Below, piece after piece: positions 1-47,715 of a stretch of 47,927 nt of DNA; the first letter of the stretch is position 1, and every line of letters starts with the position of its first letter. This DNA is from a virus (lineage: Duplodnaviria; Caudoviricetes), in IMG/VR virus record IMGVR_UViG_3300032272_000022, positions 1-47,927 of that record; one strand, given 5' to 3'. The notes below the pieces were generated by a model. It was not told the DNA's origin. It worked only from the letters and a program-made list of their open reading frames with translations, and did no database searches. The translations under genes and the position numbers were made by a program.

Positions 1-97
1 AGGAGGCCTCGATGTACATCGTCACCGGATTGAAACTCTTTCCAGACGACACGCGGTTGCAAAGTTTGAATAAACAGATAAACGCGCAGTATCTAAA

Positions 98-373: not shown

Positions 374-545
374 AACCCTATATTTAAAAAGCACCTGATT
401 TGCGATCTACCTCACAAAATTCACACCAATTAATTCACATAAACTCAAATTCTCGGCTAAGCTATAAATCTGTAGGCTCAGAATAGTAATTCAGGCTTTA
501 TCAAAAAAAACATTCAATTTCATTCGCGAAGTTCGGGAGTATTAC

Positions 546-902
546 ATGCAGTTATCGAAAAAAATAATTCTAATCTCAGCACTTATTGCTACCAAAGTTA
601 TCGTTAGCGCCTGCGACCTCGGTAGCACCGATAGTTCAAGTTCTGGTAGTAGTTCATCTGGCAGTTCCGGTAGTTCCAGTAGCAGTTTCACATTGAAACC
701 AAAAACCCATAACACGAGTTACGCTAACTGTAGCGAAACTCAGTCCGCAACAATATGTCAGGGTGCAGATGTCAGATATGATCAATATGAAGAATGCATG
801 AATCTTCACGACGGTTCCCCAGACTGTGATGGCTATTACACACCTAATTACACGGAAACAGCCAAATTATGCATGAGTACTGTTGCCGCAATAGGCTGTT
901 AA
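546..902 (+). CDS. Putative lipoprotein with Ser/Gly linker and Cys-rich domain (host)
   Basis: Signal peptide ending in the lipobox-like VSAC, a poly-Ser/Gly tract, several Cys, GGGAG RBS upstream. Confidence 0.7.
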   Translation: MQLSKKIILISALIATKVIVSACDLGSTDSSSSGSSSSGSSGSSSSSFTLKPKTHNTSYANCSETQSATICQGADVRYDQYEECMNLHDGSPDCDGYYTPNYTETAKLCMSTVAAIGC

Positions 903-924
903 ACACAATTTACCGTAAATAGAT

Positions 925-1746
925 TTGTCAGTTACTAAATCACGCTGGTTTGTTATTGGCGCAATCTTCATTCAACTTTGTGTTTACTTTATTGGATACC
1001 AGCACGGAGTCGGGAATTTCAACCCAACTCCTGCTGGCATCGAACCTAAAGTTAATGACATAACGCCATCAGTTTGTGATTGTATCGCGACAGAATCTAA
1101 ATCACATATTGCAGATTCGACGGGCAATACAAATAAATCTCTACTGGAAAAAATCGCCCTGCTTCAAAACCAATACCAGGCCCTCCAGGAAAAACAGAAC
1201 CTCGACGAATTTAGTAGTGAGCAAAAACAGGAACTCCCAAATTTACTTAAGCAGACCTTAGATCAGTTGCCAATCGATATGATAGCGTCTCGAATCGAAA
1301 GATATATCGAAATACCTCAAGAGACTTTCGAACGAATGAACGATCAACGAGCTTTTGTGAATCGACTAGCTGATGTAGCGATGGAAGGGATTATTACTGA
1401 ATCAGACGAAGACAGTATAGCCTTGTTGGGACCGATCAGCTTCTCCGACCAATACCAGGGAGGTGCAATTAAAAATATTTTTTCAAATAAGGAGGTTGCA
1501 GTTTTTGCCGGTTTTGATACAGCAACATTCGACAAACCCGTTGTCCTGGTTAAATGGTATCGAACCGAAGACAACAAAGTATTTATTTTTAAACAAATGC
1601 CAATTAGCCCAATAAATACCAACTATATTTGGTTAACGGACCAAAACGGTCTGGAAGCAGGTCAATATAATGTCGATATCTACGATGTTAGCTCACAAAT
1701 GAACTTACTATCTCGTGGTTCGTATCAGGTATTAAATTATGAATAA
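925..1746 (+). CDS. Hypothetical membrane-anchored protein, paralogue of 3044-3793
   Basis: N-terminal TM helix and coiled coil; C-terminal motifs RLAxVAMxGI, VKWY, TNYIW, GQYxVxxY and LLSxG shared with 3044-3793. Confidence 0.75.
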   Translation: MSVTKSRWFVIGAIFIQLCVYFIGYQHGVGNFNPTPAGIEPKVNDITPSVCDCIATESKSHIADSTGNTNKSLLEKIALLQNQYQALQEKQNLDEFSSEQKQELPNLLKQTLDQLPIDMIASRIERYIEIPQETFERMNDQRAFVNRLADVAMEGIITESDEDSIALLGPISFSDQYQGGAIKNIFSNKEVAVFAGFDTATFDKPVVLVKWYRTEDNKVFIFKQMPISPINTNYIWLTDQNGLEAGQYNVDIYDVSSQMNLLSRGSYQVLNYE

Positions 1747-3034
1747 GCTATTTACAGCTTTGTGTTTGGCTATGTTTTCTATTTCCGTAAGCGCAACCGA
1801 TTGGTCAAAAAGACTAAAGCCAACAACAGATGTCGAGACTAAAGACGAAGAGATCTGGTCAACATTCGATGTGAATTGTGAAAGCCCTTTTGTACAAATA
1901 AAAACCAAGAAATATAAACCTGTCAAAAAACAGAGCACTAACATCGAACACGCACCACAAACCGAATGTTTAGGCGGTATATTTCAGAAGGCTATATATC
2001 ATAAACGTGGCCCAGAAGATCCTATTGCTTACAAAACTATCGATGGTAAACCTTATCTAGAATTTTATTTCTCAGCTCCGGGAAAATACATACAAAAAAA
2101 TGTCCCTCCAAAAAAGTATGCTGTAAAACTCGCTGTCCATGACTTTAAAGGGAAAGGTAAATACCCAATTTATCACGAGAATGAAACCTTCAAACCGATG
2201 CTGGACAAGGACCATCCGATCACACTGTATAATAATTTAATCCCGATGATCAATTATAGTAAAGGAAGGCACATTCCTGTCATCATGGGTAATTTTGCTG
2301 TATTTCGAGATGCTGAACTTATTAAGCTAACCCGGAAGGAAAGAGACAGCGGGCAATATCTCGATGATAAACATAGAGAAAAAAACGTCTCCTATACGTA
2401 TACCAGTGGTGATCGTATTTATGGTAAATACGCTTTAAATGACATGCAAAAAGTAATGTCAGCAAACAAAAAACTCGGCGAAATTGTAATCACAGATATC
2501 AATAAACAGGGCATTATATCGGGTAGCTTTAAAGTTAGGATGTTGCGCGAAACTTGCAACGATATATTAATGATAGCCGATTGCCAGATAAGTAGTGTTT
2601 TAATAAAAGGCAAATTTGATGCCGCTGAGTTCAAACCGAACAAGGATTACATCAAGAAAGGACTTTTAAAACCTAAGATGAAGATGAAGATGAAATTGAA
2701 ACCCAAACTGGGTTCAAATAATAGTGGCGTCAAACCCAAACTTCGCACACCATCATCATCTGAAACTATTTTTGATCCCCCTCAACCAAGACTGCATAAA
2801 CCATTACTTGGGTCCCAATGTAAGAGAAGCATTGCTAATGCCTGTAAGTCGGCGGAAACAGCATTTCAAAGTTATCTATCCTGTCTAAACAAGTACAATT
2901 TCAAGAAAAACGATGCGCAAGACACCGCACGCAAAAACCTTAAAAAATGTTATGCGATATATGAAATTGAATACACCAGGAAATCAAAACAGTGTCGCAA
3001 ACTATTTGTTGAAGACGCGACTTGCATTAAGTAA
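1739..3034 (+). CDS. Hypothetical secreted Lys-rich protein
   Basis: Signal peptide (…ISVSA), 431-aa ORF overlapping the previous gene, Cys-rich C-terminus. Confidence 0.75.
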   Translation: MNKLFTALCLAMFSISVSATDWSKRLKPTTDVETKDEEIWSTFDVNCESPFVQIKTKKYKPVKKQSTNIEHAPQTECLGGIFQKAIYHKRGPEDPIAYKTIDGKPYLEFYFSAPGKYIQKNVPPKKYAVKLAVHDFKGKGKYPIYHENETFKPMLDKDHPITLYNNLIPMINYSKGRHIPVIMGNFAVFRDAELIKLTRKERDSGQYLDDKHREKNVSYTYTSGDRIYGKYALNDMQKVMSANKKLGEIVITDINKQGIISGSFKVRMLRETCNDILMIADCQISSVLIKGKFDAAEFKPNKDYIKKGLLKPKMKMKMKLKPKLGSNNSGVKPKLRTPSSSETIFDPPQPRLHKPLLGSQCKRSIANACKSAETAFQSYLSCLNKYNFKKNDAQDTARKNLKKCYAIYEIEYTRKSKQCRKLFVEDATCIK

Positions 3035-3043
3035 ATTGAGTCC

Positions 3044-3793
3044 GTGATATCTAAACCTATCTACATCAAAAGTGGCTACATTGTAGCTATAATCGGCCTC
3101 CTGATTGCAATTGCGATCGTGCAAACAGACTCTGTTACCTTGATTAATAAAGTGTCTGCAACGCACATCGAGGCTGCCGAAGAAAACCAGTCGATAATAT
3201 CCATCGTCGATGCTATTGCTAGTTTGTATCTATTACTGCCTGTTTTCACCGAACCAGAAAAACGAGCCCTCTTGAGCCTCAAAGAAAGAAGAGCCAGCGA
3301 GCAGAAATTTCTTTTGCTACTCAATAGACTACCGGTAGATAAGATTATCGACAAAATGATAGATCTCGATCTAGTCACAACAGAACAACTTTCAAAAATC
3401 GAGCACAAAAGACCTTACATACATCGACTGGCTAAAGTCGCCATGAACGGCATCATGACACCTGAAATACCGGAGATTGCAAAACATGGCAAAGTCCATT
3501 TCAAGTCTGCTCTAGAGGATCCGAGGGCAAATACTTTTGAGGCAACGAACATGGCCATATATGCATTTTTTGATTCAAGTGCGTATCAGGATGAAAATAT
3601 CTTCGTAAAGTGGTATGAGTCTAATCAGGGGAGAATGGCGCTTTTTAAACAGTTTCCTATCACGCAAGAGAATACAAACTATATCTGGATACACAATTCC
3701 GGAGGCTTCACAAAAGGTCAGTATCAAGTTGAAGTTTACCGAATCAACGAAAGTTTCGATTTATTGTCGAAAGGCAATTTCGAGGTTCGGTAA
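3044..3793 (+). CDS. Hypothetical membrane-anchored protein, paralogue of 925-1746
   Basis: N-terminal TM helix and the shared C-terminal beta-rich domain motifs. Confidence 0.75.
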   Translation: MISKPIYIKSGYIVAIIGLLIAIAIVQTDSVTLINKVSATHIEAAEENQSIISIVDAIASLYLLLPVFTEPEKRALLSLKERRASEQKFLLLLNRLPVDKIIDKMIDLDLVTTEQLSKIEHKRPYIHRLAKVAMNGIMTPEIPEIAKHGKVHFKSALEDPRANTFEATNMAIYAFFDSSAYQDENIFVKWYESNQGRMALFKQFPITQENTNYIWIHNSGGFTKGQYQVEVYRINESFDLLSKGNFEVR

Positions 3794-3797
3794 AAGA

Positions 3798-4277
3798 CTA
3801 TATCCAGCGACTATAAAAAAGAACTGAAATAATAAGAAATACAATTCCGACCAAATTACCCAGATCGGCGATGTTAAAAATCCCTGATTGAATAAAATCA
3901 AGATCAATAACAATAAAGTCAGTTACAGCACCCTGCCTGGCCCTTTCCAGTAAATTTGACAACCCTCCCCCCACAACCAGGCCCCAGGCCAGGGCAAATA
4001 TTACGTGACTAAACCCTTTATAGATAAGTAAACCAAATAATCCAGCCAGGAGTACCGCAACGAGTACGATACCAATATACAAAAAGGTTGATGCTTCCAG
4101 GCCGGAGCCAACACCCATCATTAAACCCTTATTTTGATAGAGATCAAAATTTACAATATCCAGAACATTCTTTGAATAAAGATCAGGTCGAAATTTCCAG
4201 AACCAGTTCTTTGTGATTGAATCGACAAGAATACTGAGCAGTAGAAATACGATAAAGGGGTAACGATGACTTTGCAT
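3798..4277 (-). CDS. lspA: Lipoprotein signal peptidase (signal peptidase II)
   Basis: Motifs NKG, GGLSNLLER…GAVTDFI and IFNIAD; multiple TM helices; ATG at 4277 (ORF track start is TTG at 4289). Confidence 0.9.
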   Translation of the reverse strand: MQSHRYPFIVFLLLSILVDSITKNWFWKFRPDLYSKNVLDIVNFDLYQNKGLMMGVGSGLEASTFLYIGIVLVAVLLAGLFGLLIYKGFSHVIFALAWGLVVGGGLSNLLERARQGAVTDFIVIDLDFIQSGIFNIADLGNLVGIVFLIISVLFYSRWI

Positions 4278-4288
4278 AAGACATGACA

Positions 4289-4342
4289 AAAATTGGTCGG
4301 GACGGCAGGATTTGAACCTGCGACCACCTGCCCCCCAGGCAG
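4289..4342. repeat. Left att core (duplicated 3' half of tRNA-Pro)
   Basis: AAAATTGGTCGGGACGGCAGGATTTGAACCTGCGACCACCTGCCCCCCAGGCAG, identical to 47800-47853. Confidence 0.97.
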
Positions 4343-29978: not shown

Positions 29979-30007
29979 AAGTTAGGACTAACGAACTTAA
30001 AAGTCAA
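29979..30007 (-). promoter_or_regulatory. Early lytic promoter (pR-like) with overlapping operator
   Basis: TTGACT-N17-TAACTT containing GTTCGTTAGTCCTAAC; nearly identical to 35653-35681. Confidence 0.75.
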
Positions 30008-35652: not shown

Positions 35653-35722
35653 TTGACTTATTAGTTCGGTAGTCCTAATCTTTTCGCCATTCCGAACCGT
35701 GGATAATTAGACAGGCCGAACT
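35653..35722 (+). promoter_or_regulatory. Early promoter (pL-like) with operators
   Basis: TTGACT-N17-TAATCT with GTTCGGTAGTCCTAAT; further CCGAAC half-sites ending at about 35697 and 35722. Confidence 0.75.
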
Positions 35723-35724
35723 TT

Positions 35725-35997
35725 ATGAACCCGAAAAAACCAACAACCCCGTTTCTCAAGAAACCAATCATCATCACAGTAGCCGACCAAATCCGCGCCA
35801 GCCATCACAGCACCATCACCAGCACCGATGCCGAGCGCAACAAGCGCCAGAAAGCTAACAACATGGATCGCTTTGCACGCTACAACGCCAGGCGCATCGC
35901 GGCGGGACTGATGCCCTTTAACTACACCGAGCAATCCAACCGGATTTATGGCACGCCAGCGGCAGTGCAAAAACCCAAACTGACACTGGTCGCGTGA
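35725..35997 (+). CDS. Hypothetical early protein
   Basis: First ORF after the pL-like promoter. Confidence 0.55.
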   Translation: MNPKKPTTPFLKKPIIITVADQIRASHHSTITSTDAERNKRQKANNMDRFARYNARRIAAGLMPFNYTEQSNRIYGTPAAVQKPKLTLVA

Positions 35998-36206
35998 TCA
36001 TGACGAGCCTCGTCCCTAAAACCGAATTCGGCGCAGCCCAGATGCAGGCAAAATTTTACAGAGACTCGCTCGCGGATCTAAAGAACCGACTCGAAAAGGG
36101 CATATTTAAAAATCCAGAATGCCGTCATCGTTGCCAGAAAACAATCGACAACATCCGCGACCGACTGCTCGAAACCGAAGCCAAACTAATCAGCAACCGG
36201 AGATAG
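35994..36206 (+). CDS. Hypothetical early protein
   Basis: Coupled small ORF. Confidence 0.55.
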   Translation: MIMTSLVPKTEFGAAQMQAKFYRDSLADLKNRLEKGIFKNPECRHRCQKTIDNIRDRLLETEAKLISNRR

Positions 36207-36208
36207 AC

Positions 36209-36385
36209 ATGTACTCATCCCCCAATCAACCCGAAAGCCTGACTAACATTCAAGTCCGCGACGAAATCAGCGCACTGCATGCAGCCGGTTATTGCCATGA
36301 CGGCGACGGCAACTGGTCAGCACCCGACAGCAACGCCTTTTACCCGCGCGAAGAAGCTTACCAACAATTGATGGAGTGGGGTTAG
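36209..36385 (+). CDS. Hypothetical early protein
   Basis: GGAGA RBS before MYSSPNQ. Confidence 0.5.
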   Translation: MYSSPNQPESLTNIQVRDEISALHAAGYCHDGDGNWSAPDSNAFYPREEAYQQLMEWG

Positions 36386-36387
36386 GT

Positions 36388-36570
36388 ATGGCCAAAACCA
36401 ACACAACAACTATCGGCGGACTGACCTACAAAATCGGTGTGCACGGCAAAGCCTTTTATCAAAGCGATGGCGAATGGCGGCTGTCAGCCAGAAACAACGA
36501 CAAAGCATTTATGAAAATACTCACCGGCAATCAACCCAAAAAGACAAAAAAGCAGGCGGTAGCAGCATGA
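36388..36570 (+). CDS. Hypothetical early protein
   Basis: MAKTNTT…; ATGA overlap with the next gene. Confidence 0.55.
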   Translation: MAKTNTTTIGGLTYKIGVHGKAFYQSDGEWRLSARNNDKAFMKILTGNQPKKTKKQAVAA

Positions 36571-37106
36571 TCGAAAAACTACTCTACAAAATCGCTGGCA
36601 ACCTGCCAATGCGCCTGATCAAAATCAACAACAAGCCGTATTTAGAGCGCCACTACATCGGCAAGTTTCTCGGCATCAGCTTTTACCTGCATCGTTTTAT
36701 ATCCGACGACAGTGAACGACACTTGCACAATCATCCCTGGGCGCACTCACTCGCCATCGTGCTCGCGGGCGGCTACACCGAAGAACGCATGCACTACCTC
36801 GACGTCAAACGCGGCCCGGTCAACAAACTGATATCGCGCTACTGGCGACCGATCAACTACATCAGCGGTGCTGCTTTTCATCGGATCACCAACCCAAAGC
36901 CCGAGACCTGGACTCTGTTTATGCATAGCAAAGTCCGCCAGAACTGGGGTTTTATTGAACATATAGGGGACGCCACCGACCTGCATAGAAGCGTCACCCT
37001 GTTTCACCAGCCTTTGAATGTGGATGAAAATAGAGACTGGGCCTCGAAGGTTGCGCCCGCCTCGCTTAATAGTGAACGGACGCCGTTTGGAGGCCAACAA
37101 AAATGA
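36567..37106 (+). CDS. Cupin-like phage protein
   Basis: YLHRF…LHNHPW…GGYTE…FHRI…WTLF metal-binding pattern. Confidence 0.65.
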   Translation: MIEKLLYKIAGNLPMRLIKINNKPYLERHYIGKFLGISFYLHRFISDDSERHLHNHPWAHSLAIVLAGGYTEERMHYLDVKRGPVNKLISRYWRPINYISGAAFHRITNPKPETWTLFMHSKVRQNWGFIEHIGDATDLHRSVTLFHQPLNVDENRDWASKVAPASLNSERTPFGGQQK

Positions 37107-38647
37107 ACGCCATCCCCAACCAACCAGAAATGGAAGTAATCACCCACCTACCCCTGGCCAAAATCCAGCCCGACCCAAACCAGCCACGCCGGTTATTCGA
37201 CGCCGACGAACTCGCACAGTTCGCCCAGTTCATCCGCGCCGATGGTTTAATTCCGCCGATCCTGGTACGCCATGTTGATGATGATCAGCACCTCATCATC
37301 CACGGTGAGCGTCGCTATCGTGCTAGCAAAATGGCAGGTAGAGAGACCATCCCCGCGATAATCGACATTCGCCAACAAGGCCCGATCGACCGGTTAATCG
37401 AACAGGTTGCCGACAACCTGCAAAGCGAGCTCAAACCGATGGAGATCGCGCAGTTTTATGAAGACCTGAACAGCATCCACAATGTCCGCAATGCCGACAT
37501 TCCCAAACTGTTGAAAGCGCGCGGACTCAAAGAACCCAGTCGCGAGCAGGTTAGCGCATACCGTCGATTGCTCAAGCTACCCAAATGGGCGCAAGACTTA
37601 ATCAACGCGGGCACCCTCACCCCAAGCCATGGCAAATATATTCTCAGTGCCCACGGACTGGATGACGTCATGGCCGACATCCGTACTGATGTCGAAATGG
37701 ATCTTGTTGCCGAAGGCCGAGCGCCCACAGTCATCGACCTGGAAGACACAATCTCCCAGGCATTTAACAATCACTATATCGACATACACTACCCATCGAA
37801 CCAGGAGCCTCGCTACTTCGACCCGGCAACCTGCAAAGACTGCAAAACCTGCAAAAAACTCACCACCCGAAACAATGGCGAAGAAGTTTTTTGTCTGAAT
37901 GACGATTGTTTTGAGCAAAAGCAAACAGTAGCCAAAGCACAGCGCGAAGCGGGATGGGATATCAAAGAGCCCAAAAAAGCACCATCGCCCACATCACCAG
38001 AAGCCGACAACCCCGAAAGCTACGAAGGCCACGACGCTGTTGAGTCCGAGCAACAACCAGAACCAAAAGCAACGTCATTGCAAGCCGAAGCGCTGGCAGC
38101 GGGCAGAGTCGAAAAAACACAGCAATATCTCGATAACTGGCTCAGGTATCAGCTAGCGCGGCACCTGGCCGAAGACCAGGAAAGCATCTTTGCCATACTG
38201 CTATGGGCAGCAGCTGGCGCACCTGGCAACGCCAACGGCTACATGACTGGCGGCGGACTCTCACACCCTGATATCAGCCATCAGGATGGTTACAAACATG
38301 GCATTAATCTCACGCTAAAAAAACACATCGATCACGGTGAGCTATCACTCGAAATCGTCAACAAAGCACTGGCCAGCATGACCCGAATTAACCTGCGACG
38401 GCTGGCACACCATTGTGAGATAAAACTCGAAGGTAACTACAAAATAGACCTCGACTATTTCCGGTTAAAAACCAAAGACGAGCTGATCAACGCAACACCA
38501 ACGTCAGTGCGCGACAACTGGATGGACGCCGACGCCTGGCGAACATTCTGCAAACAGCCCTTGCCAAAATTGCAGGAACAAATATTCGTCCACGCCGATG
38601 ATTGGGGTGTGCCAGACGACCTGCTTGAATATTACGAGGCGCAATAA
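37103..38647 (+). CDS. ParB/Spo0J-like protein
   Basis: PDPNQPRR…LIPPILVR…IIHGERRYRA; downstream HTH and Cys cluster. Confidence 0.9.
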   Translation: MNAIPNQPEMEVITHLPLAKIQPDPNQPRRLFDADELAQFAQFIRADGLIPPILVRHVDDDQHLIIHGERRYRASKMAGRETIPAIIDIRQQGPIDRLIEQVADNLQSELKPMEIAQFYEDLNSIHNVRNADIPKLLKARGLKEPSREQVSAYRRLLKLPKWAQDLINAGTLTPSHGKYILSAHGLDDVMADIRTDVEMDLVAEGRAPTVIDLEDTISQAFNNHYIDIHYPSNQEPRYFDPATCKDCKTCKKLTTRNNGEEVFCLNDDCFEQKQTVAKAQREAGWDIKEPKKAPSPTSPEADNPESYEGHDAVESEQQPEPKATSLQAEALAAGRVEKTQQYLDNWLRYQLARHLAEDQESIFAILLWAAAGAPGNANGYMTGGGLSHPDISHQDGYKHGINLTLKKHIDHGELSLEIVNKALASMTRINLRRLAHHCEIKLEGNYKIDLDYFRLKTKDELINATPTSVRDNWMDADAWRTFCKQPLPKLQEQIFVHADDWGVPDDLLEYYEAQ

Positions 38648-38649
38648 TC

Positions 38650-38970
38650 ATGACCATCGCATCAAAAATACTTGCCCTGCTCAAAACGCATCCAGCCCTG
38701 ACTATCGCCGAAATCCAAGAGACAGACGGATACAACTACTGCATAAGCAGCACGCGCAACGCAGTCCAACGCCTCACGCGAGAGGGATTAATCGACCTGG
38801 CCTTTTTCGTAGGTAAAGAAAAATCGCACAAACTCACCAGCAGAGGCTTCACCGAAATCAAACCCGAGACGAACCAAAAAATAAAGAGTGAATGGCTCGA
38901 AATACAAGTGCAACACAAGGCAATCAATCAGTTTCTTTATACAAAACATGACGCCGTAGCGCGTTTGTGA
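38650..38970 (+). CDS. Winged-helix DNA-binding protein
   Basis: ILALLK…LTIAEI…STRNAVQRLTREGLI. Confidence 0.65.
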   Translation: MTIASKILALLKTHPALTIAEIQETDGYNYCISSTRNAVQRLTREGLIDLAFFVGKEKSHKLTSRGFTEIKPETNQKIKSEWLEIQVQHKAINQFLYTKHDAVARL

Positions 38971-39007
38971 CATTGGAGATTAAACCCATGCAAAACAAAA
39001 CCACCCA

Positions 39008-39202
39008 ATGATAAAAGCAGGGCTAGCAAATCACCTGAGCCCACAACGCCCACGCCTGCGCGTGTATGAGGATGGCACTTGCAGGTATGAATTCACAATC
39101 GAAGGCTGGATTATTTTTGAGGATATAGCTAAGGCTTATGCGTTTTTGAAAGAGCAGATTAATCCCTTGCGCAGATCACCTGCTTTCAATCGGCACTGGT
39201 AA
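39008..39202 (+). CDS. Hypothetical protein
   Basis: TAATG coupling to the methylase gene. Confidence 0.5.
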   Translation: MIKAGLANHLSPQRPRLRVYEDGTCRYEFTIEGWIIFEDIAKAYAFLKEQINPLRRSPAFNRHW

Positions 39203-40824
39203 TGGCAATGCTACGTCATCAAATTAGGGACCGGGAACTGATTATCGATAACTTCGCCGGTGGCGGTGGCGCATCGCTTGGCATCGAGCAAGCATTGGGC
39301 CGACCGGTTGATATCGCTATCAATCACGACGCTGAAGCGGTAGCCACGCACACAGCCAACCACCCTGACAGCAAGCATTACTGTGAGGATGTCTGGCAGA
39401 TAAACCCACGCAACGCCTGCAAAGGCCGACCTGTCGGGCTTGCCTGGTTTAGCCCAGATTGCAAGCACCACTCAAAAGCCAAAGGCGGCAAACCCGTTAG
39501 CAAAAAGATTCGCGGGCTAGCCTGGGTCGTCATCAAATGGGCCAAACAGGCTCGCCCCAGAATCATCATGCTGGAAAACGTCGAAGAGTTCGCCGACTGG
39601 GGCCCGCTCAATATTGCGGTTGACGCCAAAACAGGTAGAGCCATTTACGAACCAGACGGCACCCCAAAACTATTCCCCTGCCCGCTACGCAAAGGCCAAA
39701 CCTTTCAATACTGGAAATCCCAACTCGAACGCCAGGGATATATCGTCGATTGGAAAATACTGCGCGCCAGCGACCACGGCGCGCCCACCATCCGCAAACG
39801 CCTGTTCTTAATCGCCCGGTGCGACGGTCGTCCCATCGTCTGGCCCAGGCCCACGCATGGCGACCCCAAAAGTGACGCAGTCAAACAAGGCAAGTTACTA
39901 CCCTGGCGCACAGCAGCTGAGTGCATCGACTGGACACTGCCAACACCATCGATATTCCTGAGCAAAGAAGAAGGCAAAAAAGCAAACGTGCGCCGACCAC
40001 TGGCACAAAACACCATGAAGCGAATTGCCAAAGGGATAAAACGCTTTGTTATTGATGCTGCGGAGCCGTTTATTGTTACCTGTAACCATAGTGGTGAAAG
40101 TTTCCGTGGACAGGGTTTAACCAAGCCGATGAACACAGTAGTCGGGAGCCGCGATGCTCACGGGCTGATAATCCCCAGCATCACCGAATGCGCCAACGCA
40201 TCCAGCCAACGCAACATGCCGGCCGATGAACCACTACGCACCATTTGCGCCCAAACCAAAGGCGGACATTTCGCCCTGGTCAGCGCCTTTCTCGCCAAAC
40301 ACTATGGCGGCAACTACGACGGCGCTGGACATGGACTTAACGAACAGACCGGCACCATCACAGCGAAGGATCATCATTCGCTGATCACATCCCACATGGT
40401 CAAGCTACGCGGCACCTGCAAAGACGGCCAACCAATCGACGAACCCGCCCCAACCATCACAGCAGGTGGTAATCACATCGGTGAGGTTCGCGCCTTTCTT
40501 ATCAAATACTATGGCACGGGTGGACAAGATCAAAGCTGTCAAGATCCAGTACACACCATCCCATCCCGCGAACGCTTCGGCCTCATCACTGTATCCGGAC
40601 AAGACTACATCATCGCCGACATCGGCATGCGCATGCTCACCCCGCGCGAGCTATATCGTGCCCAAAGCTTCCCCGACAGCTACATCATAGACCCGCAAAT
40701 CAACGGCAAGAAGTTAAGCAAAGCAGCACAGGTACGCATGGTCGGGAACTCAGTCGTGCCATGCCTGGCAAAAGCACTGGTTGAAGCCAATGTTCAATTT
40801 GATAGAAAACGTCACGTTGCTTAG
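39202..40824 (+). CDS. DNA (cytosine-5) methyltransferase, orphan phage type
   Basis: FAGGGG, SPDC, ENV, RKRLF and GNSV motifs; internal PxxTI repeats. Confidence 0.95.
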   Translation: MAMLRHQIRDRELIIDNFAGGGGASLGIEQALGRPVDIAINHDAEAVATHTANHPDSKHYCEDVWQINPRNACKGRPVGLAWFSPDCKHHSKAKGGKPVSKKIRGLAWVVIKWAKQARPRIIMLENVEEFADWGPLNIAVDAKTGRAIYEPDGTPKLFPCPLRKGQTFQYWKSQLERQGYIVDWKILRASDHGAPTIRKRLFLIARCDGRPIVWPRPTHGDPKSDAVKQGKLLPWRTAAECIDWTLPTPSIFLSKEEGKKANVRRPLAQNTMKRIAKGIKRFVIDAAEPFIVTCNHSGESFRGQGLTKPMNTVVGSRDAHGLIIPSITECANASSQRNMPADEPLRTICAQTKGGHFALVSAFLAKHYGGNYDGAGHGLNEQTGTITAKDHHSLITSHMVKLRGTCKDGQPIDEPAPTITAGGNHIGEVRAFLIKYYGTGGQDQSCQDPVHTIPSRERFGLITVSGQDYIIADIGMRMLTPRELYRAQSFPDSYIIDPQINGKKLSKAAQVRMVGNSVVPCLAKALVEANVQFDRKRHVA

Positions 40825-40834
40825 GAGACAATAA

Positions 40835-41053
40835 ATGATGTCCCACCCATCCACAAAACCAGCGATCCACGGCTTCCAGCCAACAGATCCCATGGTCAGC
40901 AAAATCGATCACCTGGCTGAAGTTTGCCAACTGTGGAAAGAAAGGCGTCAAAAACACATGCAAACGAACAGTCTGCGCGCCAGTGTCGTCGTGCTGTGTG
41001 AAGAAATTGCTGATTTGGCTCGGGCGCATCCTGAGCCTTCGAGGAAACCATAA
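40835..41053 (+). CDS. Hypothetical protein
   Basis: AGGAG RBS; coupled to the next gene. Confidence 0.55.
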   Translation: MMSHPSTKPAIHGFQPTDPMVSKIDHLAEVCQLWKERRQKHMQTNSLRASVVVLCEEIADLARAHPEPSRKP

Positions 41054-41340
41054 TGCATCACTTCCACCAACTCGAATGCGCCATCGAATCAATCATTCAG
41101 ATTGCAGAAAACGTGAGTCCACGCCCACTCACACTGCATGACAACGAGTCAATCGCTGGACTCGTCAAAAGCAGCGACAACAACCCGACTGTCGGTCATG
41201 TACCGCATCCTTTTGGGGGATGTATGGGCGTCACGACTAGTCCTAGAGAAAATTACCTTGGGGAACAATCAGTCACCATTGCTTTGAAGCGCGAACCCCA
41301 CGTGGAGCGGGTGGCTGGTTATATTGGGATACAGATATGA
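41053..41340 (+). CDS. Hypothetical protein
   Basis: TAATG and ATGA couplings. Confidence 0.55.
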
Positions 41341-41831
41341 GTCGAGGCATCAACAAAGCAATCATCGTCGGCACACTAGGCCACGATCCATCCCTGCGAT
41401 CAATGCCCAACGGCAATGCCGTGGTTAACTTCTCCGTTGCCACCAACGAAAGCTGGAAAGACAAGCAAACCGACCAGCAGCACGAACACACCGAATGGCA
41501 CAACATCGTCATCTTCGGCAAGCTCGCCGAAATCGCCAAACAATACCTGGTCAAAGGCTCGCAAGCCTACTTCGAAGGCAAGCTAAAAACCGAAAAATGG
41601 CAGGACAGAACCGGCAACGATCGCTACACCACCAAAATCATTGTGTCCGACATGCAGATGCTAGGGCGCAAATCCGAAGGCGCAGCGCACGACAACACCG
41701 ACCATCGACCAAAACCAGAACCCGGCAAATCAACTGCGCACGGGCAAGCGTATCGCGCGGCCACGGAAGGTAGCGCGATACCAGACAACAGCGCGCCTGT
41801 TGATGATGGTTTTGATGATATTCCTTTTTGA
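41337..41831 (+). CDS. ssb: Single-stranded DNA-binding protein
   Basis: [12 protein letters not shown]…TEWH…; acidic tip DDIPF. Confidence 0.97.
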
Positions 41832-42454
41832 TGATGCAAAAAATCATGAACCCATTATTCATCCCACTAAAAACAGAGTTCTTCGATGCCTTTGCATCAG
41901 GCGAAAAAACCGAAGAACTCAGAGCCTACGGCCCGCGATGGAATGAGCAAACATGTGCCATCGGGCGCAACGTCACACTCAGCAAAGGCTATGGCAAACA
42001 AAACCGACTAACAGGAAAAATATGGAAGTTCAAAAAACAACATGCGACGCTTTTTGGCAGCACATACAAAGCGGCAATCAAGTCCGTATTTGGGACACTC
42101 GACATCGAAATAGCCTGCATATCAATTGCTGATTTAGAACCGTTAACGGACATTAGAATGCCTGAAAGAATCCAACGCCGACGCACCAAAGGCTGGCGCA
42201 TGCCCGACAACACTATCTATGTCGGCAGGGGCAGCAAATGGGGTAACCATTTCACAGTCGAGCAATACGGGCGCGAAAAAGCCATTGAAAAGTTCCGGAG
42301 CTATATCGGTCATCCTAATAGCCCACACCGATTTGAACCGGAAGAAATCGAACAGCTACGCGGTAAAAATCTGGCGTGCTGGTGCTCACTCGACCATGCA
42401 TGTCATGCCGACGTATTGCTAGAGATAGCAAACAATAACCAGGTGCAACCATGA
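41828..42454 (+). CDS. ASCH/PUA-like domain fused to a DUF4326-like domain
   Basis: [14 protein letters not shown], then [12 protein letters not shown]…[10 protein letters not shown]…CHADVL. Confidence 0.7.
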
Positions 42455-42801
42455 CCCTATCCTGCTCATGCGACTTCGAAGACTGCGCATTTTTTTACGA
42501 CTCGCCGACCGACTATGAAACGCTCGACACTATCCGCCGAGGCCGGTGTTTAAGCTGCAAAGACCAGATTGATGTCGGTGCAATAACAACAGCGTTCCCA
42601 AGCTGGCGACCACCCAACTCGGATATCGAAGAACGAATCCATGGCGAAGATGGCGAAGTCCCAATGGCAACCAAATACATGTGCGAAGAATGCAGCGATC
42701 TCTTCTTCTCACTCACCGAACTAGGCTACTGCATCACGATCGGCACGCACACCATGAAAGAACTGGTTGCGATGCATAACAACCAGGAGGTCGACCAATG
42801 A
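42451..42801 (+). CDS. Hypothetical Zn-finger-like protein
   Basis: CxxC…CxxC pairs. Confidence 0.6.
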   Translation: MTLSCSCDFEDCAFFYDSPTDYETLDTIRRGRCLSCKDQIDVGAITTAFPSWRPPNSDIEERIHGEDGEVPMATKYMCEECSDLFFSLTELGYCITIGTHTMKELVAMHNNQEVDQ

Positions 42802-42923
42802 TCATTCATAAACTTTGGAAAAAACGAAGCAATGGTGGCTGTACAGTTACTTACTGTGAAGGATGGTTTCTGTTTGGAATTATCCCTTTATATATCAAAA
42901 AAACTGTTGTGGGAGATTAAATA

Positions 42924-43232
42924 ATGGCTGATCAATCCGCAATAAGAAAATACCGCCCATCAAACGGCACCGAAGGTGAAATATTCACGGCCGTTCACTG
43001 CTTTCAATGCGAACGCGATAATTATGATCTTGAAACAGGCGAAGGTGAACCCTGCGAAATACTTGGGCGCACAATGGTCCACTCGCGCGACGATGACGAA
43101 TACCCCAGCGAATGGACATTTGACCAGGAAGGCAACCCAACCTGCACAGCATTCATCACAAAAGACGAACCAGTACCGATCCGATGCACCAGGACGAATG
43201 ACATGTTTGGAGAATTCGATGGTCGACAATAA
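42924..43232 (+). CDS. Hypothetical Cys-containing phage protein
   Basis: PSNGTEG…CxxC…C…PxC; GGGAG RBS. Confidence 0.65.
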   Translation: MADQSAIRKYRPSNGTEGEIFTAVHCFQCERDNYDLETGEGEPCEILGRTMVHSRDDDEYPSEWTFDQEGNPTCTAFITKDEPVPIRCTRTNDMFGEFDGRQ

Positions 43233-43752
43233 AAGCAAAGCCGAAGCAATCATGAATTTTGTAGACTCGATGGTAGGCGCATTTGATGCGGGATACGTCG
43301 ACAGAAATCATTGCACCCTATCTGAGATTCACACAGTCGCAAAGCATCATGTTAAAGATACGTATGGAGTGGATCAGCCAAATGCTGTGGAAAAATACGG
43401 CGAAAAAATGGCTAAAGATATTGGGCTTAATTCCCCGCGTCCAGAAAACTATCCGCATGCGAGAACCTGCCGCCGCGTTGTTTGTGCCGCAATTCGATCA
43501 AGTGACGGCGACGTATTAATCGGCATCCGGCACTACAGCAAAGACATGCACCAGCAAATCAAAGCACGACACGACGGTAAAAAATTTTTACGCCGACACG
43601 ATCCAGACCAGGGCTTTGTCGATCAATACGGCGTGTACATGACCCGTGAAGAAGCCTTTGAGGTAGCCAAAGCTGCCAACCAGGTAATATTTGTAGAGCA
43701 CTGTGGCAAGGGGCTTGACGGAATGAAGCTGTACAGCGAAGGGCTGTATTGA
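43219..43752 (+). CDS. Hypothetical phage protein
   Basis: GGAG RBS before ATG 43219; VVCAAIR…RH…QGFVDQYG…LYSEGLY. Confidence 0.7.
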   Translation: MVDNKSKAEAIMNFVDSMVGAFDAGYVDRNHCTLSEIHTVAKHHVKDTYGVDQPNAVEKYGEKMAKDIGLNSPRPENYPHARTCRRVVCAAIRSSDGDVLIGIRHYSKDMHQQIKARHDGKKFLRRHDPDQGFVDQYGVYMTREEAFEVAKAANQVIFVEHCGKGLDGMKLYSEGLY

Positions 43753-43809
43753 GCATAACCCCAAGCTTTGTGGAGAGCGAAGCGATTCCAAAACAGCGTA
43801 TTGTTATGT
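43753..43809 (-). repeat. attC site 1 (57 bp)
   Basis: Minus strand: ACATAAC-AATAC-GCT[G]TTTTGGA…TCCACAAAGC-TTGGG-GTTATGC; near-identical to 45694-45751. Confidence 0.85.
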
Positions 43810-43835
43810 TTTTATTAATTTTAAACAGGTGAAAT

Positions 43836-44051
43836 ATGGAGCTTACAAACGAGCATATAGAAATATTAAAACACACTGCTAAGAACAGGTACTTTTGCGG
43901 CGACAGTAAAGAAATGCAAGAACTTTGTAATTTTAAAATGATGGTTTACGTGGGAAAAAAACCATTCGTGCCAGACCCATATTTTGAATTAATGAATGAC
44001 GGTAAAACATTTCTCGAAGCCCTTAACGAGCTTGAATGTGCCGAAACATAA
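43836..44051 (+). CDS. Cassette A hypothetical protein (winged-helix-like)
   Basis: AGGTG RBS; stop TAA lies in ACATAAC. Confidence 0.7.
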   Translation: MELTNEHIEILKHTAKNRYFCGDSKEMQELCNFKMMVYVGKKPFVPDPYFELMNDGKTFLEALNELECAET

Positions 44052-44172
44052 CCCTGGCTATTTGCTGCCACCGAAACGAAAACGAGGACTTAAATTATGA
44101 CCGATAAAACTGAGACCACTGCCCCCAAATCAATTACAGGTTTAGGTGGTCAGAAACATAGCGTTGTTAAGT
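44046..44172 (-). repeat. attC site 2 (127 bp) containing RBS and ATG of 44097-44288
   Basis: Arms GCTATTTGCTGCCACCGAAAC / GTTTAGGTGGTCAGAAACATAGC with two bulged bases. Confidence 0.85.
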
Positions 44173-44288
44173 GCGTTATTTGTAACGACACTGGCTGGAA
44201 CCACGGCGCTCAGTGCCACCCCAGCAAAGCCCATCCCAAAGGGTGGAGGACTATTAAATGTGATTGCGCGGCAGGTAAAAAATCATGA
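44097..44288 (+). CDS. Cassette B small Zn-ribbon-like protein
   Basis: GAGGA RBS; CVICNDTG…CDC. Confidence 0.6.
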   Translation: MTDKTETTAPKSITGLGGQKHSVVKCVICNDTGWNHGAQCHPSKAHPKGWRTIKCDCAAGKKS

Positions 44289-44470
44289 TAACGATAACTT
44301 TTCACGGGTGGATAATTCCACTGATAATAACTGTGTGCGGGTTTAGTGCAGCATATTTGTTGACACGCAATGCTGGTGGTATAGCTGGGCCATTAGCGCC
44401 GGTTATAGGTTACGGCGTGGCGCTGGTTTTAGCTTTAATAGTGTGGATGATTTATGGATTAGCCGCTTAA
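44285..44470 (+). CDS. Cassette B small two-TM membrane protein
   Basis: ATGA coupling; two hydrophobic helices; stop lies in GCTTAAC. Confidence 0.65.
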   Translation: MITITFHGWIIPLIITVCGFSAAYLLTRNAGGIAGPLAPVIGYGVALVLALIVWMIYGLAA

Positions 44471-44583
44471 CCCTAAATTTTGCAGTGCATAAACGAACTT
44501 AAATAGGCGATGAAATGAGCAAGAACACTGAACAAAAAACCGAGCACCCTGGCAAAGTGTCTGCCAACAATGATTTGTTATGC
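44465..44583 (-). repeat. attC site 3 (119 bp) containing the start of 44515-44943
   Basis: Minus strand: GCATAAC-AAATC-ATT[G]TTG[G]CAG…CTGCAAAAT-TTAGG-GTTAAGC. Confidence 0.8.
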
Positions 44584-44943
44584 GCTTATTATCCTTTGCT
44601 ACATCATTCGCTGGGAATCACCGACCCTGAACAATTTGATAGTTACAGAAATTATTTTGAGGCCAGCGGCGGACACAGTGATTTACCAGGATTATTAAAA
44701 CTCTGCGAAGCTGGGTTAATGGTAGAAGGAAATTCCCCTAGTTTTTGCCATGAAGATTCCCGCACTTTTTATGTAACCCAAGAAGGGCGGGCAATGGCTT
44801 TTGAGACTAGGCCGAAACCGCCGAAACTGACAAGAGGTCAGCGACGATACAGAGCATATTTAAAATCAGAGGCAGACGAAAGTTTTGGTGACTGGTTGAA
44901 AGACCCATATTGGGATGACTACAGGCGTCAGCTAGGCGCATAA
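44515..44943 (+). CDS. Cassette C hypothetical phage protein
   Basis: HSLG…YRNYF…LTRGQRRYRAYL…FGDWL; stop lies in GCATAAC. Confidence 0.75.
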   Translation: MSKNTEQKTEHPGKVSANNDLLCAYYPLLHHSLGITDPEQFDSYRNYFEASGGHSDLPGLLKLCEAGLMVEGNSPSFCHEDSRTFYVTQEGRAMAFETRPKPPKLTRGQRRYRAYLKSEADESFGDWLKDPYWDDYRRQLGA

Positions 44944-45060
44944 CCCAAAGCTATGCGGCGCATACGACTAACTTAACGAGACTTTGAACCATGAACGAAG
45001 ACCAGAACCAGAAACAAGCACTGAACGCAAAGCGTCCGATTCATGAGCGCTTTGTTAGCT
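44938..45060 (-). repeat. attC site 4 (123 bp) containing the start of 44991-45290
   Basis: Minus strand: AGCTAAC-AAAGC-GCT[C]ATG…CATAGC-TTTGG-GTTATGC. Confidence 0.8.
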
Positions 45061-45290
45061 GTGGGGAATACGATAAAAAAACTTTTGACAAAATCAATAA
45101 AGTTATAAAAACAAAGATTGCAGAACTTAAAGACGATTACGAAAAACTAAAAGCAGTCGATTCTCTTATCGGTGAAGATGCCACGAAGGAGAAAAAACAC
45201 GACTTATTGAATTCTGTATTTGTGCTACAAGAGGTCCAATCAGAATCTATGGATATTTTATTTACACCCGTGAAAAGCGTGAGCAGCTAA
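44991..45290 (+). CDS. Cassette D hypothetical protein
   Basis: 99 aa; stop lies in AGCTAAC. Confidence 0.65.
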   Translation: MNEDQNQKQALNAKRPIHERFVSCGEYDKKTFDKINKVIKTKIAELKDDYEKLKAVDSLIGEDATKEKKHDLLNSVFVLQEVQSESMDILFTPVKSVSS

Positions 45291-45412
45291 CCCCCGCGTT
45301 AATTTGACGCCGAAACGAAACTGAGGATTTAACAAAATGGCAGAAATTGAAGAGTACCTAAAAGACAAAAAGGCCGCTGAAAAAGGCGGTCAAATTGAAC
45401 CTGTTGTTATGT
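45285..45412 (-). repeat. attC site 5 (128 bp) containing RBS and ATG of 45337-45699
   Basis: Minus strand: ACATAAC-AACAG-GTT[C]AATTTGAC[C]GCC…GGCGTCAAATTAAC-GCGGGG-GTTAGCT. Confidence 0.9.
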
Positions 45413-45699
45413 GGCGTGGTGGTGACGGGATGACTAAGCCAGTAAAGGTTTCTTGCCCTGATGGGTTATGGCCCGAATACGATTCCGACGGGGTTCAAAT
45501 ATTTGAAAACACTCACTTCAAAACCGAAGATCAAGCATGGAAAAGTATCGAAGAAAGTGTTCTAGCTGGGATATCGTTAGCCGGTCGTGAGGTCGAGTTT
45601 AGGGAGAAGCAACTGGCAGAATCGAAGGATTGGGCGGCACAGGCTGCAAAAGATTTTGCTTTGTTTCGAACAAATTTGAGAAATAAGAACGACACATAA
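45337..45699 (+). CDS. Cassette E hypothetical protein
   Basis: GAGGA RBS; stop lies in ACATAAC. Confidence 0.7.
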   Translation: MAEIEEYLKDKKAAEKGGQIEPVVMWRGGDGMTKPVKVSCPDGLWPEYDSDGVQIFENTHFKTEDQAWKSIEESVLAGISLAGREVEFREKQLAESKDWAAQAAKDFALFRTNLRNKNDT

Positions 45700-45751
45700 C
45701 CCCATAGCTTTGTGGAGAGCGAAGCGATTCCAAAACAGCGTATTGTTATGC
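45694..45751 (-). repeat. attC site 6 (58 bp)
   Basis: Core AGCTTTGTGGAGAGCGAAGCGATTCCAAAACAGCGTATTGTTATG identical to site 1. Confidence 0.85.
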
Positions 45752-45767
45752 GCAGGAGTGATTAACG

Positions 45768-45989
45768 ATGCCAGATCGTGATAAAGATTTAGAACAGCTA
45801 CAGGCCATGAATCCTACACAATGGCGCTATGTGAATTGGCTTGAGGAAGGTGGAGGGGAAGTGCAGCGGGTGCATGATGTTTATGTCTTGTTTGAAATTC
45901 CACGGTACGGAGGGAAGCCTCAATATGTTGGGACATATCACCGAGATGATCTACATAAGCTAATAGACATGGCGTACTCATGGACGTGA
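45768..45989 (+). CDS. Cassette F hypothetical protein
   Basis: AGGAG RBS; LFEIPRYGGKP…AYSWT. Confidence 0.7.
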   Translation: MPDRDKDLEQLQAMNPTQWRYVNWLEEGGGEVQRVHDVYVLFEIPRYGGKPQYVGTYHRDDLHKLIDMAYSWT

Positions 45990-45990
45990 C

Positions 45991-46010
45991 GCATAACACT
46001 AGATTATCAA
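45991..46010 (-). other. Putative attI-like primary insertion site of the array
   Basis: Minus strand TGATAAT-CTAGT-GTTATGC: simple-site geometry and no attC hairpin. Confidence 0.55.
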
Positions 46011-46035
46011 GACCTTGCAAGGTACCGGTTAAAAA

Positions 46036-46341
46036 ATGTACAGAAAAACAGCTAAATCATTAAAGTACGAAAACATGCGCAAAGCCAAGGAACGTAAGCG
46101 CCTGGAGTCACCTGCGCCTGAACCAATCATCGATCTACCCGATCTGCGCAAGACCATCGTAATAACAAATTTCGATTTTGGTGAAGAAGTGCATAGGTTC
46201 GAGCTAATGCAAACCGGGCGCATCGATCAATATAAGGTGTTGGTAGATGGAGAACTATGGAAGCACCGCATCGGACTATCCGGGATTCTGGCAGGTGTCA
46301 GAAAATCCATGCCTCCAGTGAGATCAATCTATGCGAATTAA
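46036..46341 (+). CDS. Hypothetical protein
   Basis: 101-aa ORF in the early operon. Confidence 0.65.
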   Translation: MYRKTAKSLKYENMRKAKERKRLESPAPEPIIDLPDLRKTIVITNFDFGEEVHRFELMQTGRIDQYKVLVDGELWKHRIGLSGILAGVRKSMPPVRSIYAN

Positions 46342-46493
46342 AAACCCCCAGCAAGCAAGCTTACCAGGGGCCTCGGAAGCATCCACCATCCCTGGTGGTG
46401 CGGATCAGAATGATCGTGACCAAACTATGGCAAATTTCAGCAGTGCAGAAAATAGCCATATTCAACAAGTTTTGTAAGAAATAGACTACAAAA

Positions 46494-46709
46494 ATGTTTT
46501 TATCGCCCACCGATATCGCAGAACTAACCAACGCAAAGCGCAAAGATCGACAGATCCAGGCGTTGCAAGACATGCGAATTCGGTTTGCAAAGGCGATCGA
46601 CGGCAGGCCAAAAGTTTTACAAGCAGAGGTTGAACGGGTTATGCTCGGCGGGCCGATCGTCGATCGAGCGACAGAACAGCAACCCAGGTTCGACAAAATA
46701 CATGGCTAA
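46494..46709 (+). CDS. Putative excisionase (DUF4224-like)
   Basis: MFLSPTDIAELT…QIQAL…DGRPKV; overlaps the integrase start. Confidence 0.8.
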   Translation: MFLSPTDIAELTNAKRKDRQIQALQDMRIRFAKAIDGRPKVLQAEVERVMLGGPIVDRATEQQPRFDKIHG

Positions 46710-47715
46710 ACGCGATCTTCCGCCACGGATGTACAAAAAATACCACGTTTATTATTACGTGGTGCGCGTCGATGGTAAAAAAAAATGGATCAGACTATCG
46801 AACGACTACCAGGAAGCGCTGTTTAAATACGCCGAGCTCGAAGGCAACCCGCACAACACCGGCTTTATTAAAGCGGCAATTGACAAATACCGGGTCGAAA
46901 TCCTGCCCAGCAAAGCACCCAAAACTAGACGCGAGCGCCAATATTTGCTCGACAGACTCAAGCGAGTCTTCGGCGAAATGCGCTATGAAGCGCTACAACC
47001 AAAGCATCTACAAGAATACCTGCAAACCCGAACCGACAAAAAAGGCAAAACCGTCCCGGTAGCAGCGAACCGAGAAATCAAGCTACTATCAAGCATATTC
47101 CGACATTGCATCGTGTGGGGTTTCCACGACTCAAACCCCTGCGAACACGTTTTCTATCACCCTGAGAAAGGCCGTGACAGGTACATCACCGACGCAGAAC
47201 TGGACCTCTTAAGAGATAACGCAGACGAAATGACCAGGGCGATAATCGATATCGCATACTGCACAGGTATGCGCAAAAGCGACATCCTGCAAATCAAAAG
47301 CGCCGATGCTGCACCCGAAATGCTCTATAACAAGCAGAACAAGACCGGCAAACAGCAACTATTTTTGTACAAACCAAAGCTAAAAGCAGCCATCGAGTCC
47401 GCGAAGAAGCTTAAAAAAACGCGACGCACCAAAGACAACGCCCACCCGTTGACGCCCTATTTGTTTATCAACTCCAAAGGTGGCGTCATATCCGAGACCG
47501 GATTCAACTCGACATGGCGACGATTAAAAACAAAAACCGGTTTAGTCGGCGACAGGAATTTAACGTTCCACGATATACGCGCCAAAGCACTCACAGACGC
47601 GAAAAACAAACACGGACTTGAGTACGCCCAGGCACTCGGCGGGCACGAAAACGCAAGCCAAACCGAGCACTACATCAAGTCAAAATCCACTGATAAAATT
47701 GACTCGCTAGAGTGA
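46702..47715 (+). CDS. int: Phage tyrosine integrase
   Basis: Catalytic R (GMRKSD), HxxR (FHDIR), H (GGHEN) and Y (TEHY); adjacent to att. Confidence 0.95.
   Translation: MAKRDLPPRMYKKYHVYYYVVRVDGKKKWIRLSNDYQEALFKYAELEGNPHNTGFIKAAIDKYRVEILPSKAPKTRRERQYLLDRLKRVFGEMRYEALQPKHLQEYLQTRTDKKGKTVPVAANREIKLLSSIFRHCIVWGFHDSNPCEHVFYHPEKGRDRYITDAELDLLRDNADEMTRAIIDIAYCTGMRKSDILQIKSADAAPEMLYNKQNKTGKQQLFLYKPKLKAAIESAKKLKKTRRTKDNAHPLTPYLFINSKGGVISETGFNSTWRRLKTKTGLVGDRNLTFHDIRAKALTDAKNKHGLEYAQALGGHENASQTEHYIKSKSTDKIDSLE

Follow-up and report, generated by a model that had tools for sequence, protein, structure and literature searches.

An apparent inverted integron cassette array in the early operon of a lambdoid prophage

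The attC hairpins

The window analysed here is a whole stretch of 47,927 nucleotides (nt) of virus DNA (Duplodnaviria; Caudoviricetes), positions 1 to 47,927 of IMG/VR virus record IMGVR_UViG_3300032272_000022. Between positions 43753 and 46341 it carries six hairpins resembling integron attC sites, each followed by one or two short genes, then a hairpin-less site and a gene for a 101-amino-acid (aa) protein. By the prevailing view, genes enter integrons in a single orientation and come under a promoter termed Pc. The initial annotation of the window proposed that the attC polarity is on the minus strand while all of the genes are on the plus strand, i.e. that the cassettes are inverted. The hairpins are as follows; the minus sign denotes that the attC top strand is on the minus strand.

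43753..43809, minus: attC site 1, 57 nt, extra base at 43794
44046..44172, minus: attC site 2, 127 nt, extra base at 44157; loop with a GAGG ribosome-binding-like motif and a plus-strand ATG at 44097
44465..44583, minus: attC site 3, 119 nt, extra base at 44568; loop with ATG at 44515
44938..45060, minus: attC site 4, 123 nt, extra base at 45045; loop with ATG at 44991; the weakest site
45285..45412, minus: attC site 5, 128 nt, extra base at 45397; loop with a GAGG motif and ATG at 45337
45694..45751, minus: attC site 6, 58 nt, extra base at 45736

All six are TAAC...GTTA hairpins with inverted R boxes (RYYYAAC ... GTTRRRY) and paired L boxes, and their lengths of 57–128 nt fall inside the attC range of 57–141 nt. 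The extra base was found in the arm next to the plus-strand GTTA at six of six sites, just as the initial annotation described. Read on the minus strand, every site likewise gives R'', 5 nt and then L'', whose fourth base has no partner (GCT[G], TAT[G], ATT[G], GCT[C], GTT[C], GCT[G]), and the spacer on the other arm is 5 or 6 nt. Both polarities were scored with our own scanner, which forces the extra base to position 4 of L'' and was used at a threshold of 6. With the minus strand as the top strand all six sites scored between 6.25 and 13; in the opposite polarity three sites scored 3 and pairing was impossible at the other three. At this threshold the six sites were the sole matches in the 47.9-kb window, and 40 Markov-simulated windows gave an average of 0.275 matches and a maximum of 1. 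As a control, the scanner called canonical polarity, with the top strand on the coding strand, at 12 of 12 scanned sites of the published Shewanella M16-3 arrays and at both sites of TJE1. Extra bases facing the cut AAC mark the recombined bottom strand (PMC5027507; this and the other papers cited here are drawn on in excerpt). As the extra bases opposite AAC lie on the plus strand, the attC bottom strand here is the plus strand, which is also the coding strand; bacterial integrons have the opposite arrangement. Scanner polarity, the simulated null and the canonical controls thus bear out the proposed inversion.

On the plus strand the first extra base is C in four sites and G in two; Nivina et al. 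describe it as usually G (PMC5027507). An attC bottom strand is expected to be purine-rich, with a stabler fold and more G:T pairs. The plus-strand purine fraction of the sites is 0.53–0.61, and the coding strand is A-rich in any case. Site 4 can also fold in a shifted register. Sites 1 and 6 are 96% identical over 50 nt, yet they precede unrelated genes, which suggests that one hairpin may have been copied onto two cassettes. An exact search of viral contigs with the site 1/6 sequence gave no match. A comparable near-duplicate hairpin pair was seen at another viral locus, L128. The long loops of sites 2 and 5 (44046-44172 and 45285-45412) share a CCGAAACGAAA motif just upstream of the ribosome-binding-like motif and possibly form a loop family.

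The cassettes

The boundaries given in the initial annotation all coincide with TAA|C positions and define the following units; ORF denotes open reading frame.

43759..44051, plus: cassette 1, hairpin followed by a 71-aa ORF (43836-44051), with the TAA of the next R box as its stop codon
44052..44470, plus: cassette 2, hairpin followed by a pair of overlapping ORFs, 44097-44288 (63 aa) and 44285-44470 (61 aa)
44471..44943, plus: cassette 3, hairpin, then a 142-aa ORF (44515-44943) matching phrog_13561 and phrog_21796, function unknown
44944..45290, plus: cassette 4, hairpin, then a 99-aa ORF (44991-45290) with no family
45291..45699, plus: cassette 5, hairpin, then a 120-aa ORF (45337-45699) whose homologue search returned itself alone
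45700..45996, plus: cassette 6, hairpin, then a 73-aa ORF (45768-45989) with an 81% homologue in an array of phage locus L003/L004

The annotated order of hairpin first and gene second holds in all six units; the expectation of a single gene per unit fails for cassette 2. All of the cassette ORFs lie on the attC bottom strand behind a hairpin, and the canonical layout, a top-strand ORF upstream of its own attC, was not found. In five of the six units the stop codon is the TAA of the R box. No minus-strand ORF that touches the array exceeds 68 aa.

In each gene unit the two 7-base ends are mutually complementary, perfectly so in five units and at 6/7 positions in one; perfect complementarity was found in none of the six sites read linearly, and 12 of 5040 permutations do equally well. 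These ends show that the units were once circles, and they are silent on which hairpin belongs to which gene. Neither Pfam nor PADLOC gave a match for the seven cassette proteins, nor did NCBIfam among the three that were tested. PHROGs matched the cassette 3 protein alone, to the two families named above. The cassette 3 gene family also occurs as ordinary phage genes without hairpins. Apart from the window's own record, a metagenome scan yielded one non-cassette homologue and one weak match, and a search of annotated phages and plasmids with the array gave no match.

The crossover position

According to the initial annotation the crossover lies at plus-strand TAA|C. At its left end the array begins with a full hairpin after the TGA of the preceding gene, and at its right end (45991 on) there is an R box without a hairpin. 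A TAA|C crossover resolves this arrangement into six cassettes, six attC sites and one simple site, whereas a G|TT crossover leaves the last cassette without an attC. Moreover, four genes start inside hairpin loops (sites 2–5), in frames 0, 2, 0 and 0 relative to GTT. A G|TT crossover would therefore sever these genes from their starts.

Cassette pairs were also compared between arrays of other viral contigs, which are given L numbers. In L102/L140 the gene is 93% identical, the upstream hairpin 88% and the downstream hairpin 64%. The corresponding values are 88–93%, 97% and 62–65% for L149/L109, and 76%, 96% and 47% for L128/L092; in L093/L133 the gene is 88% and the upstream hairpin 93% identical, and the downstream hairpins are unrelated. 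Homology in these four pairs extends from the upstream AAC to the downstream TAAC and is lost within a few bases after it, and L145/L133 are 100% identical up to TAACG and divergent beyond. For comparison, random hairpin pairs (n=619) have a median identity of 0.60, and 0.6% of them reach 0.85. The shared hairpin in L149/L109 and in L093/L133 is not the one selected by the search pattern. Among pairs from different arrays at at least 85% identity, none keeps the downstream hairpin alone, so that genes co-segregating with the downstream hairpin, the observation named beforehand as contrary to a TAA|C crossover, were not seen at this identity. Array ends, gene starts within loops, cassette pairs that have lost the downstream hairpin and a pL-like site at the head of the gene run are all consistent with TAA|C and with units of hairpin first, gene second.

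A crossover at plus-strand G|TT, by which each gene would travel with its downstream hairpin and hairpins would donate a start codon to the following gene, is highly improbable given these comparisons. The proteins P0001 and P0002 do part from the product of gene 44515 exactly at the GTTA box (they were compared as proteins only), and some natural attC sites can recombine the top strand at low rates (PMC5027507). The extra bases, however, are on the wrong arm for this reading, shuffling at G|TT would break genes in the frames given above, and the last cassette would lack an attC.

The terminal site and the 101-aa gene

Two further features follow the last cassette. The first was absent from the initial annotation and is new in the present analysis.

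45991..46024, minus: hairpin-less terminal attI-like site, consisting of an R box, a 5-nt spacer, an L-box-like element and a conserved extension containing GCAAGGT
46036..46341, plus: conserved gene for a 101-aa protein without a known family, immediately behind the attI-like site in the position and orientation of an integron integrase gene

The insertion point probably lies between 45996 and 45997, and the site contains a GTT core. A decayed seventh attC was rejected as an account of the site, which has no L-box pairing and no scanner match. The 101-aa gene has homologues in 29 viral loci, and a motif like 45991-46024 stands immediately upstream of 27 of them. The crossover AAC is at a fixed 20–21 nt from the conserved core in these 27 loci, which range from 39 to 70% GC; the search itself required TGCAAG and an AAC at 19–24 nt from the core. 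Among 24 distinct copies five of the positions between AAC and TGCAAG are 96–100% conserved, and bases more than 7 to the left of AAC are not conserved. A strict version of the motif matched 15 of the 29 loci and gave three matches in 164 other loci, all from the same records.

Upstream of the 101-aa gene 19 of the 29 loci have attC sites (41 sites, 40 of them inverted), and downstream there are none. Related phages carry different cassette sets in front of the same terminal site. Together with AAC, the four bases in front of it match the nearest upstream attC at 7/7 positions in 11 of 15 rows, or 10 of 13 once duplicates are removed, and the equivalent match within those attC sites occurred in 0 of 15. 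The terminal R box thus complements the last attC, and cassette ends are received at this site. The 101-aa protein was modelled (pLDDT 81) with a predicted basic helix, a four-stranded sheet and a helix. Comparison of the model with PDB, BFVD, VIA-align (best Z 4.3) and the ESM Atlas gave no significant match; an arm-binding integrase domain gave Z 3.1, which was too weak and was not used. A search of annotated phages and plasmids with the protein found no match. We can only hypothesize that the 101-aa protein has a role in recombination.

It is quite possible, if short of probable, that the cassettes are real and inverted and that the terminal motif is instead the regulatory or translation-start region of the 101-aa gene, used by IntI as a hot spot of the attG type; there would then be no dedicated attI and the protein would have no part in recombination. 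This explanation is compatible with the inverted polarity and differs solely in the nature of the site. The motif abuts the start of the 101-aa gene, the predicted fold lacks a significant match, and short GWT sites, with hot spots among them, receive cassettes through IntI (10.1101/2022.09.11.507474). In addition, the arrays of phage L004 end in a different motif and lack the 101-aa gene. An attG site takes up cassettes away from any integron, at a double-stranded short GWT core with a single cleavage, and the window site, which has the GTT core, would likewise take up cassettes where no integron lies. In contrast, the attG consensus is about 3 bases plus short hot-spot motifs (10.1101/2022.09.11.507474), whereas the window site, conserved across about 30 bases, is linked to a single gene and stands at the head of multi-cassette arrays. 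The fixed AAC spacing across loci of widely differing GC, and the confinement of arrays to one side of the site in one polarity, also argue for a dedicated site.

In phage L004 two separate inverted arrays (9311 and 12666) both end in one and the same hairpin-less site, some 45 bases long. This half-site differs from the window's motif, and an exact search found it in no other viral contig.

Inverted arrays in other viral contigs

A symmetric two-arm pattern identified 65 viral loci, to which 8 hand-picked loci were added and from which 5 duplicates were removed. A one-arm pattern gave 80 loci, most without attC; from this set only L022, L040, L076, L078 and L085, hand-picked with at least two sites each, were tallied. 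Units were kept when gaps were 100–700 nt and end complementarity was at least 6/7, and polarity was assigned by ORF coverage and purine content as a proxy. By this measure the 70 units in 33 loci comprised 55 inverted, 14 ambiguous and 1 canonical. The viral contig L078 (3718-4727) carries a low-GC cassette of canonical polarity in a 786-nt unit, beyond the gap limit; it is probably host-integron DNA.

We find it hardly credible that a host chromosomal integron was captured whole and persists here as a frozen fragment, or that the hairpins are terminators or chance structures. The array has a GC content of 0.43, below the 0.51 of the flanking operon, and captured host integrons do exist in phages (M16-3). 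However, the captured integron that was tested, M16-3, is canonical, the cargo genes have ordinary phage homologues, different cassettes stand in front of the same site in related phages, and related phages differing by single cassettes cut at AA|C have already been found in other loci. The level expected by chance is also less than one site per window.

Integrase source and expression

Three features elsewhere in the window bear on how the cassettes might be moved and expressed.

35653..35678, plus: candidate pL-like promoter/operator with a TTGACT hexamer, heading the gene run 35725-47715, about 8 kb upstream of the array
46494..47715, plus: a DUF4224 excisionase together with a lambda-type phage integrase, at the right prophage end; the integrase does not match the integron-integrase model TIGR02249
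47808..47881, minus: tRNA at the right prophage end, part of which is repeated at 4297-4342

Searches with TIGR02249 gave no match in this record and none in 5 array-bearing viral records, nor any above cut-off in 27 further related viral records, many of which are fragments. The integrase most likely comes from the host, the simplest source being an IntI that acts in trans. Such an IntI is possibly under the same DNA-damage signal that induces the prophage. Movement by a recombinase other than IntI, either the phage integrase or host XerC/D and perhaps aided by the 101-aa protein, seems unlikely to us. The absence of IntI from all 33 viral records searched and the presence of a tyrosine recombinase 0.7 kb from the array would favour it. 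Set against these are the classical attC anatomy of the sites and the recombination of similar phage sites by IntI1 (PMC9892861), together with the phage integrase itself, a lambda-type enzyme that comes with an excisionase and suits the tRNA attachment repeat. Several loci with the terminal site also have no long ORF just behind the 101-aa gene.

Comparison of two intergenic regions showed that the 26-base sequence at 35653 recurs at 29982-30007 on the minus strand, in the repressor region, with 23 of 26 bases identical. A pattern built from both copies finds only those two, which are 5.6 kb apart. The pair looks like a pL/pR promoter-operator pair and supports read-through expression of the array from 35653, in line with the proposal of the initial annotation that a pL-like promoter rather than a Pc would be used. 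Promoter matches on the minus strand were at chance level only, and a Pc reading in from the attI side would be antisense to the genes.

Interpretation

From these comparisons we consider it probable that the window holds a six-cassette integron-type array with its genes on the attC bottom strand, likely a phage-owned platform driven by a host-supplied integron integrase. Each cassette would run from the C of plus-strand TAA|C through the hairpin and the gene to the next TAA. The plus strand would fold and be cut at AA|C, and the resulting circles would insert at the attI-like site (45996/45997), so that each new cassette would land at the promoter-distal end of the array. The genes would be transcribed from the pL-like promoter and not from a Pc. 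Because the reversed layout brings its own start and stop codon, insertion would not break the phage early operon. As inverted arrays fill the conserved site with other cassettes in many related phages, these phages likely borrow the host enzyme to swap early genes.

Several observations weigh against this interpretation. No IntI was found in this record, nor above cut-off in the 32 related viral records, and GTDB genomes searched with the integrase and with the terminase contained no relative from which a host could be read. A general promoter scan was at chance level. Folding of both strands, proposed at the outset as a check, gave a more stable plus strand in 4 of 6 sites and not in the other two, and the plus strand has neither a G:T excess nor a GC-skew bias. 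The upstream hairpins of L102/L140 and L128/L092 were chosen by the search pattern, and near-identical copies of the window's own cassettes were not found elsewhere. The expectation that each gene travels with its upstream hairpin thus held in the best pairs from related phages and failed in the 77–87% homologues of the window's own cassettes: the body of gene 44515 is shared by P0001 (87%) and P0002 (77%) with different hairpin-derived N-termini, and the 78–81% homologue of gene 45768 in L004 has different hairpins on both sides. L123/L106 (80%) are slightly nearer in the downstream (62–63%) than in the upstream hairpin (53%), both near background. Several further pairs at 68–80% are near background at both hairpins, and L165/L145 share just part of the upstream hairpin. 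The swapped hairpins of distant homologues may reflect hairpin turnover, or repeated cassette formation, over longer times.

A more extended proposal is speculative and rather doubtful. Temperate phages may own an integron-like platform consisting of a dedicated site of the attI type and, where intI would stand, a small partner protein by which the host integrase is recruited or steered; this platform would convert ordinary phage genes into reversed cassettes with a loop-supplied start codon. The origin of new cassettes is called unknown in Cury et al. (PMC4889954). Since a single gene family includes both cassette members and ordinary phage genes, and the body of gene 44515 occurs with at least three different hairpin-derived N-termini, cassette creation can be tested here. 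If the platform proposal is true, these arrays are a place where new cassettes arise and could be watched. The terminal site and the 101-aa protein constitute a concrete substrate and a candidate cofactor. In a separate pair of loci (L185 412-877 and L142 1345-1925) an 89%-identical gene start belongs to a cassette in one phage and lacks an upstream hairpin in the other, possibly a before-and-after of cassette creation or domestication.

Comparison with known systems

With six attC sites, where at least two are required, and TIGR02249 unmatched in the record, the window array belongs to the attC-site clusters that lack an integron integrase (CALINs). It is not a complete integron, as no intI lies beside the array and the only integrase is lambda-type. 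Bacterial arrays and CALINs share with it R''-L''-L'-R' hairpins of 57–128 nt, an L'' extra base at position 4, chimeric R boxes and one simple site at the array head (PMC4889954, PMC5027507). Unlike in bacterial arrays, the window genes are on the bottom strand after their own attC, four of them starting in the loop, and there is no intI or recognised Pc, the 101-aa gene occupying the intI position. The 'inverted integrase' of Cury et al. is an integrase gene facing the same way as the attC sites and not inverted cargo (PMC4889954). The array thus appears to work like an integron array, departs from the canonical orientation and carries a conserved attI-like site.

Qi et al. (2023) described 17 phage CALINs and found five phage attC sites to be substrates of IntI1, with bottom strands recombining better than top strands (PMC9892861). 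In that study PH101 sites similar to those of the window were shown to be recombined by IntI as single strands at AA|C. Like the window array, those CALINs have several attC sites in a phage and no integrase. The excerpts of that paper call the PH101 and TJE1 arrays typical, do not discuss gene polarity relative to attC, and describe neither a phage-specific attI-like site nor starts inside loops, unlike the window array. The TJE1 array is canonical by our scanner and in this differs from that of the window. In Pseudoalteromonas phage H101, PH101_attC1 as it stands in the forward primer matches the strand bearing all 12 nearby annotated genes (L194 490-2558), and three more PH101 sites scan with the bottom strand on the coding strand. 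From the aadA7 control of that study (PMC9892861) we infer that forward primers hold the bottom strand. PH101 therefore appears to be an inverted phage array that was already assayed without being named as such. No account of inverted cargo genes or of a phage attI-like site was found in the literature searched, which covered few subscription journals and no figures. In the window array integron chemistry is apparently used backwards, fitting cassettes into a phage early operon; if true, this is a site-specific route to mosaic phage genomes via a host enzyme.

Prophage setting

The window is a single viral record with a lambdoid prophage encoding a gpA-type terminase, a lambda portal, capsid E, an O protein and a helix-turn-helix repressor candidate. 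The tRNA-segment repeat at 4297-4342 marks the left prophage end, and the tRNA was the only match in an Rfam search of the window. The array lies near the end of the plus-strand gene run, in which most neighbouring genes before the array overlap by 1–4 bases. In the low-GC flank (1-4296) are unnamed ORFs and a gene for signal peptidase II. Between the two pL/pR-like copies lies another low-GC block, at 30.5–35.5 kb, whose accessory genes include those for an HNH nuclease and a VasI-like domain protein. The operon of the array also encodes a single-strand binding protein (41337-41831) and a cytosine methyltransferase (39202-40824), the former of which may influence hairpin folding.

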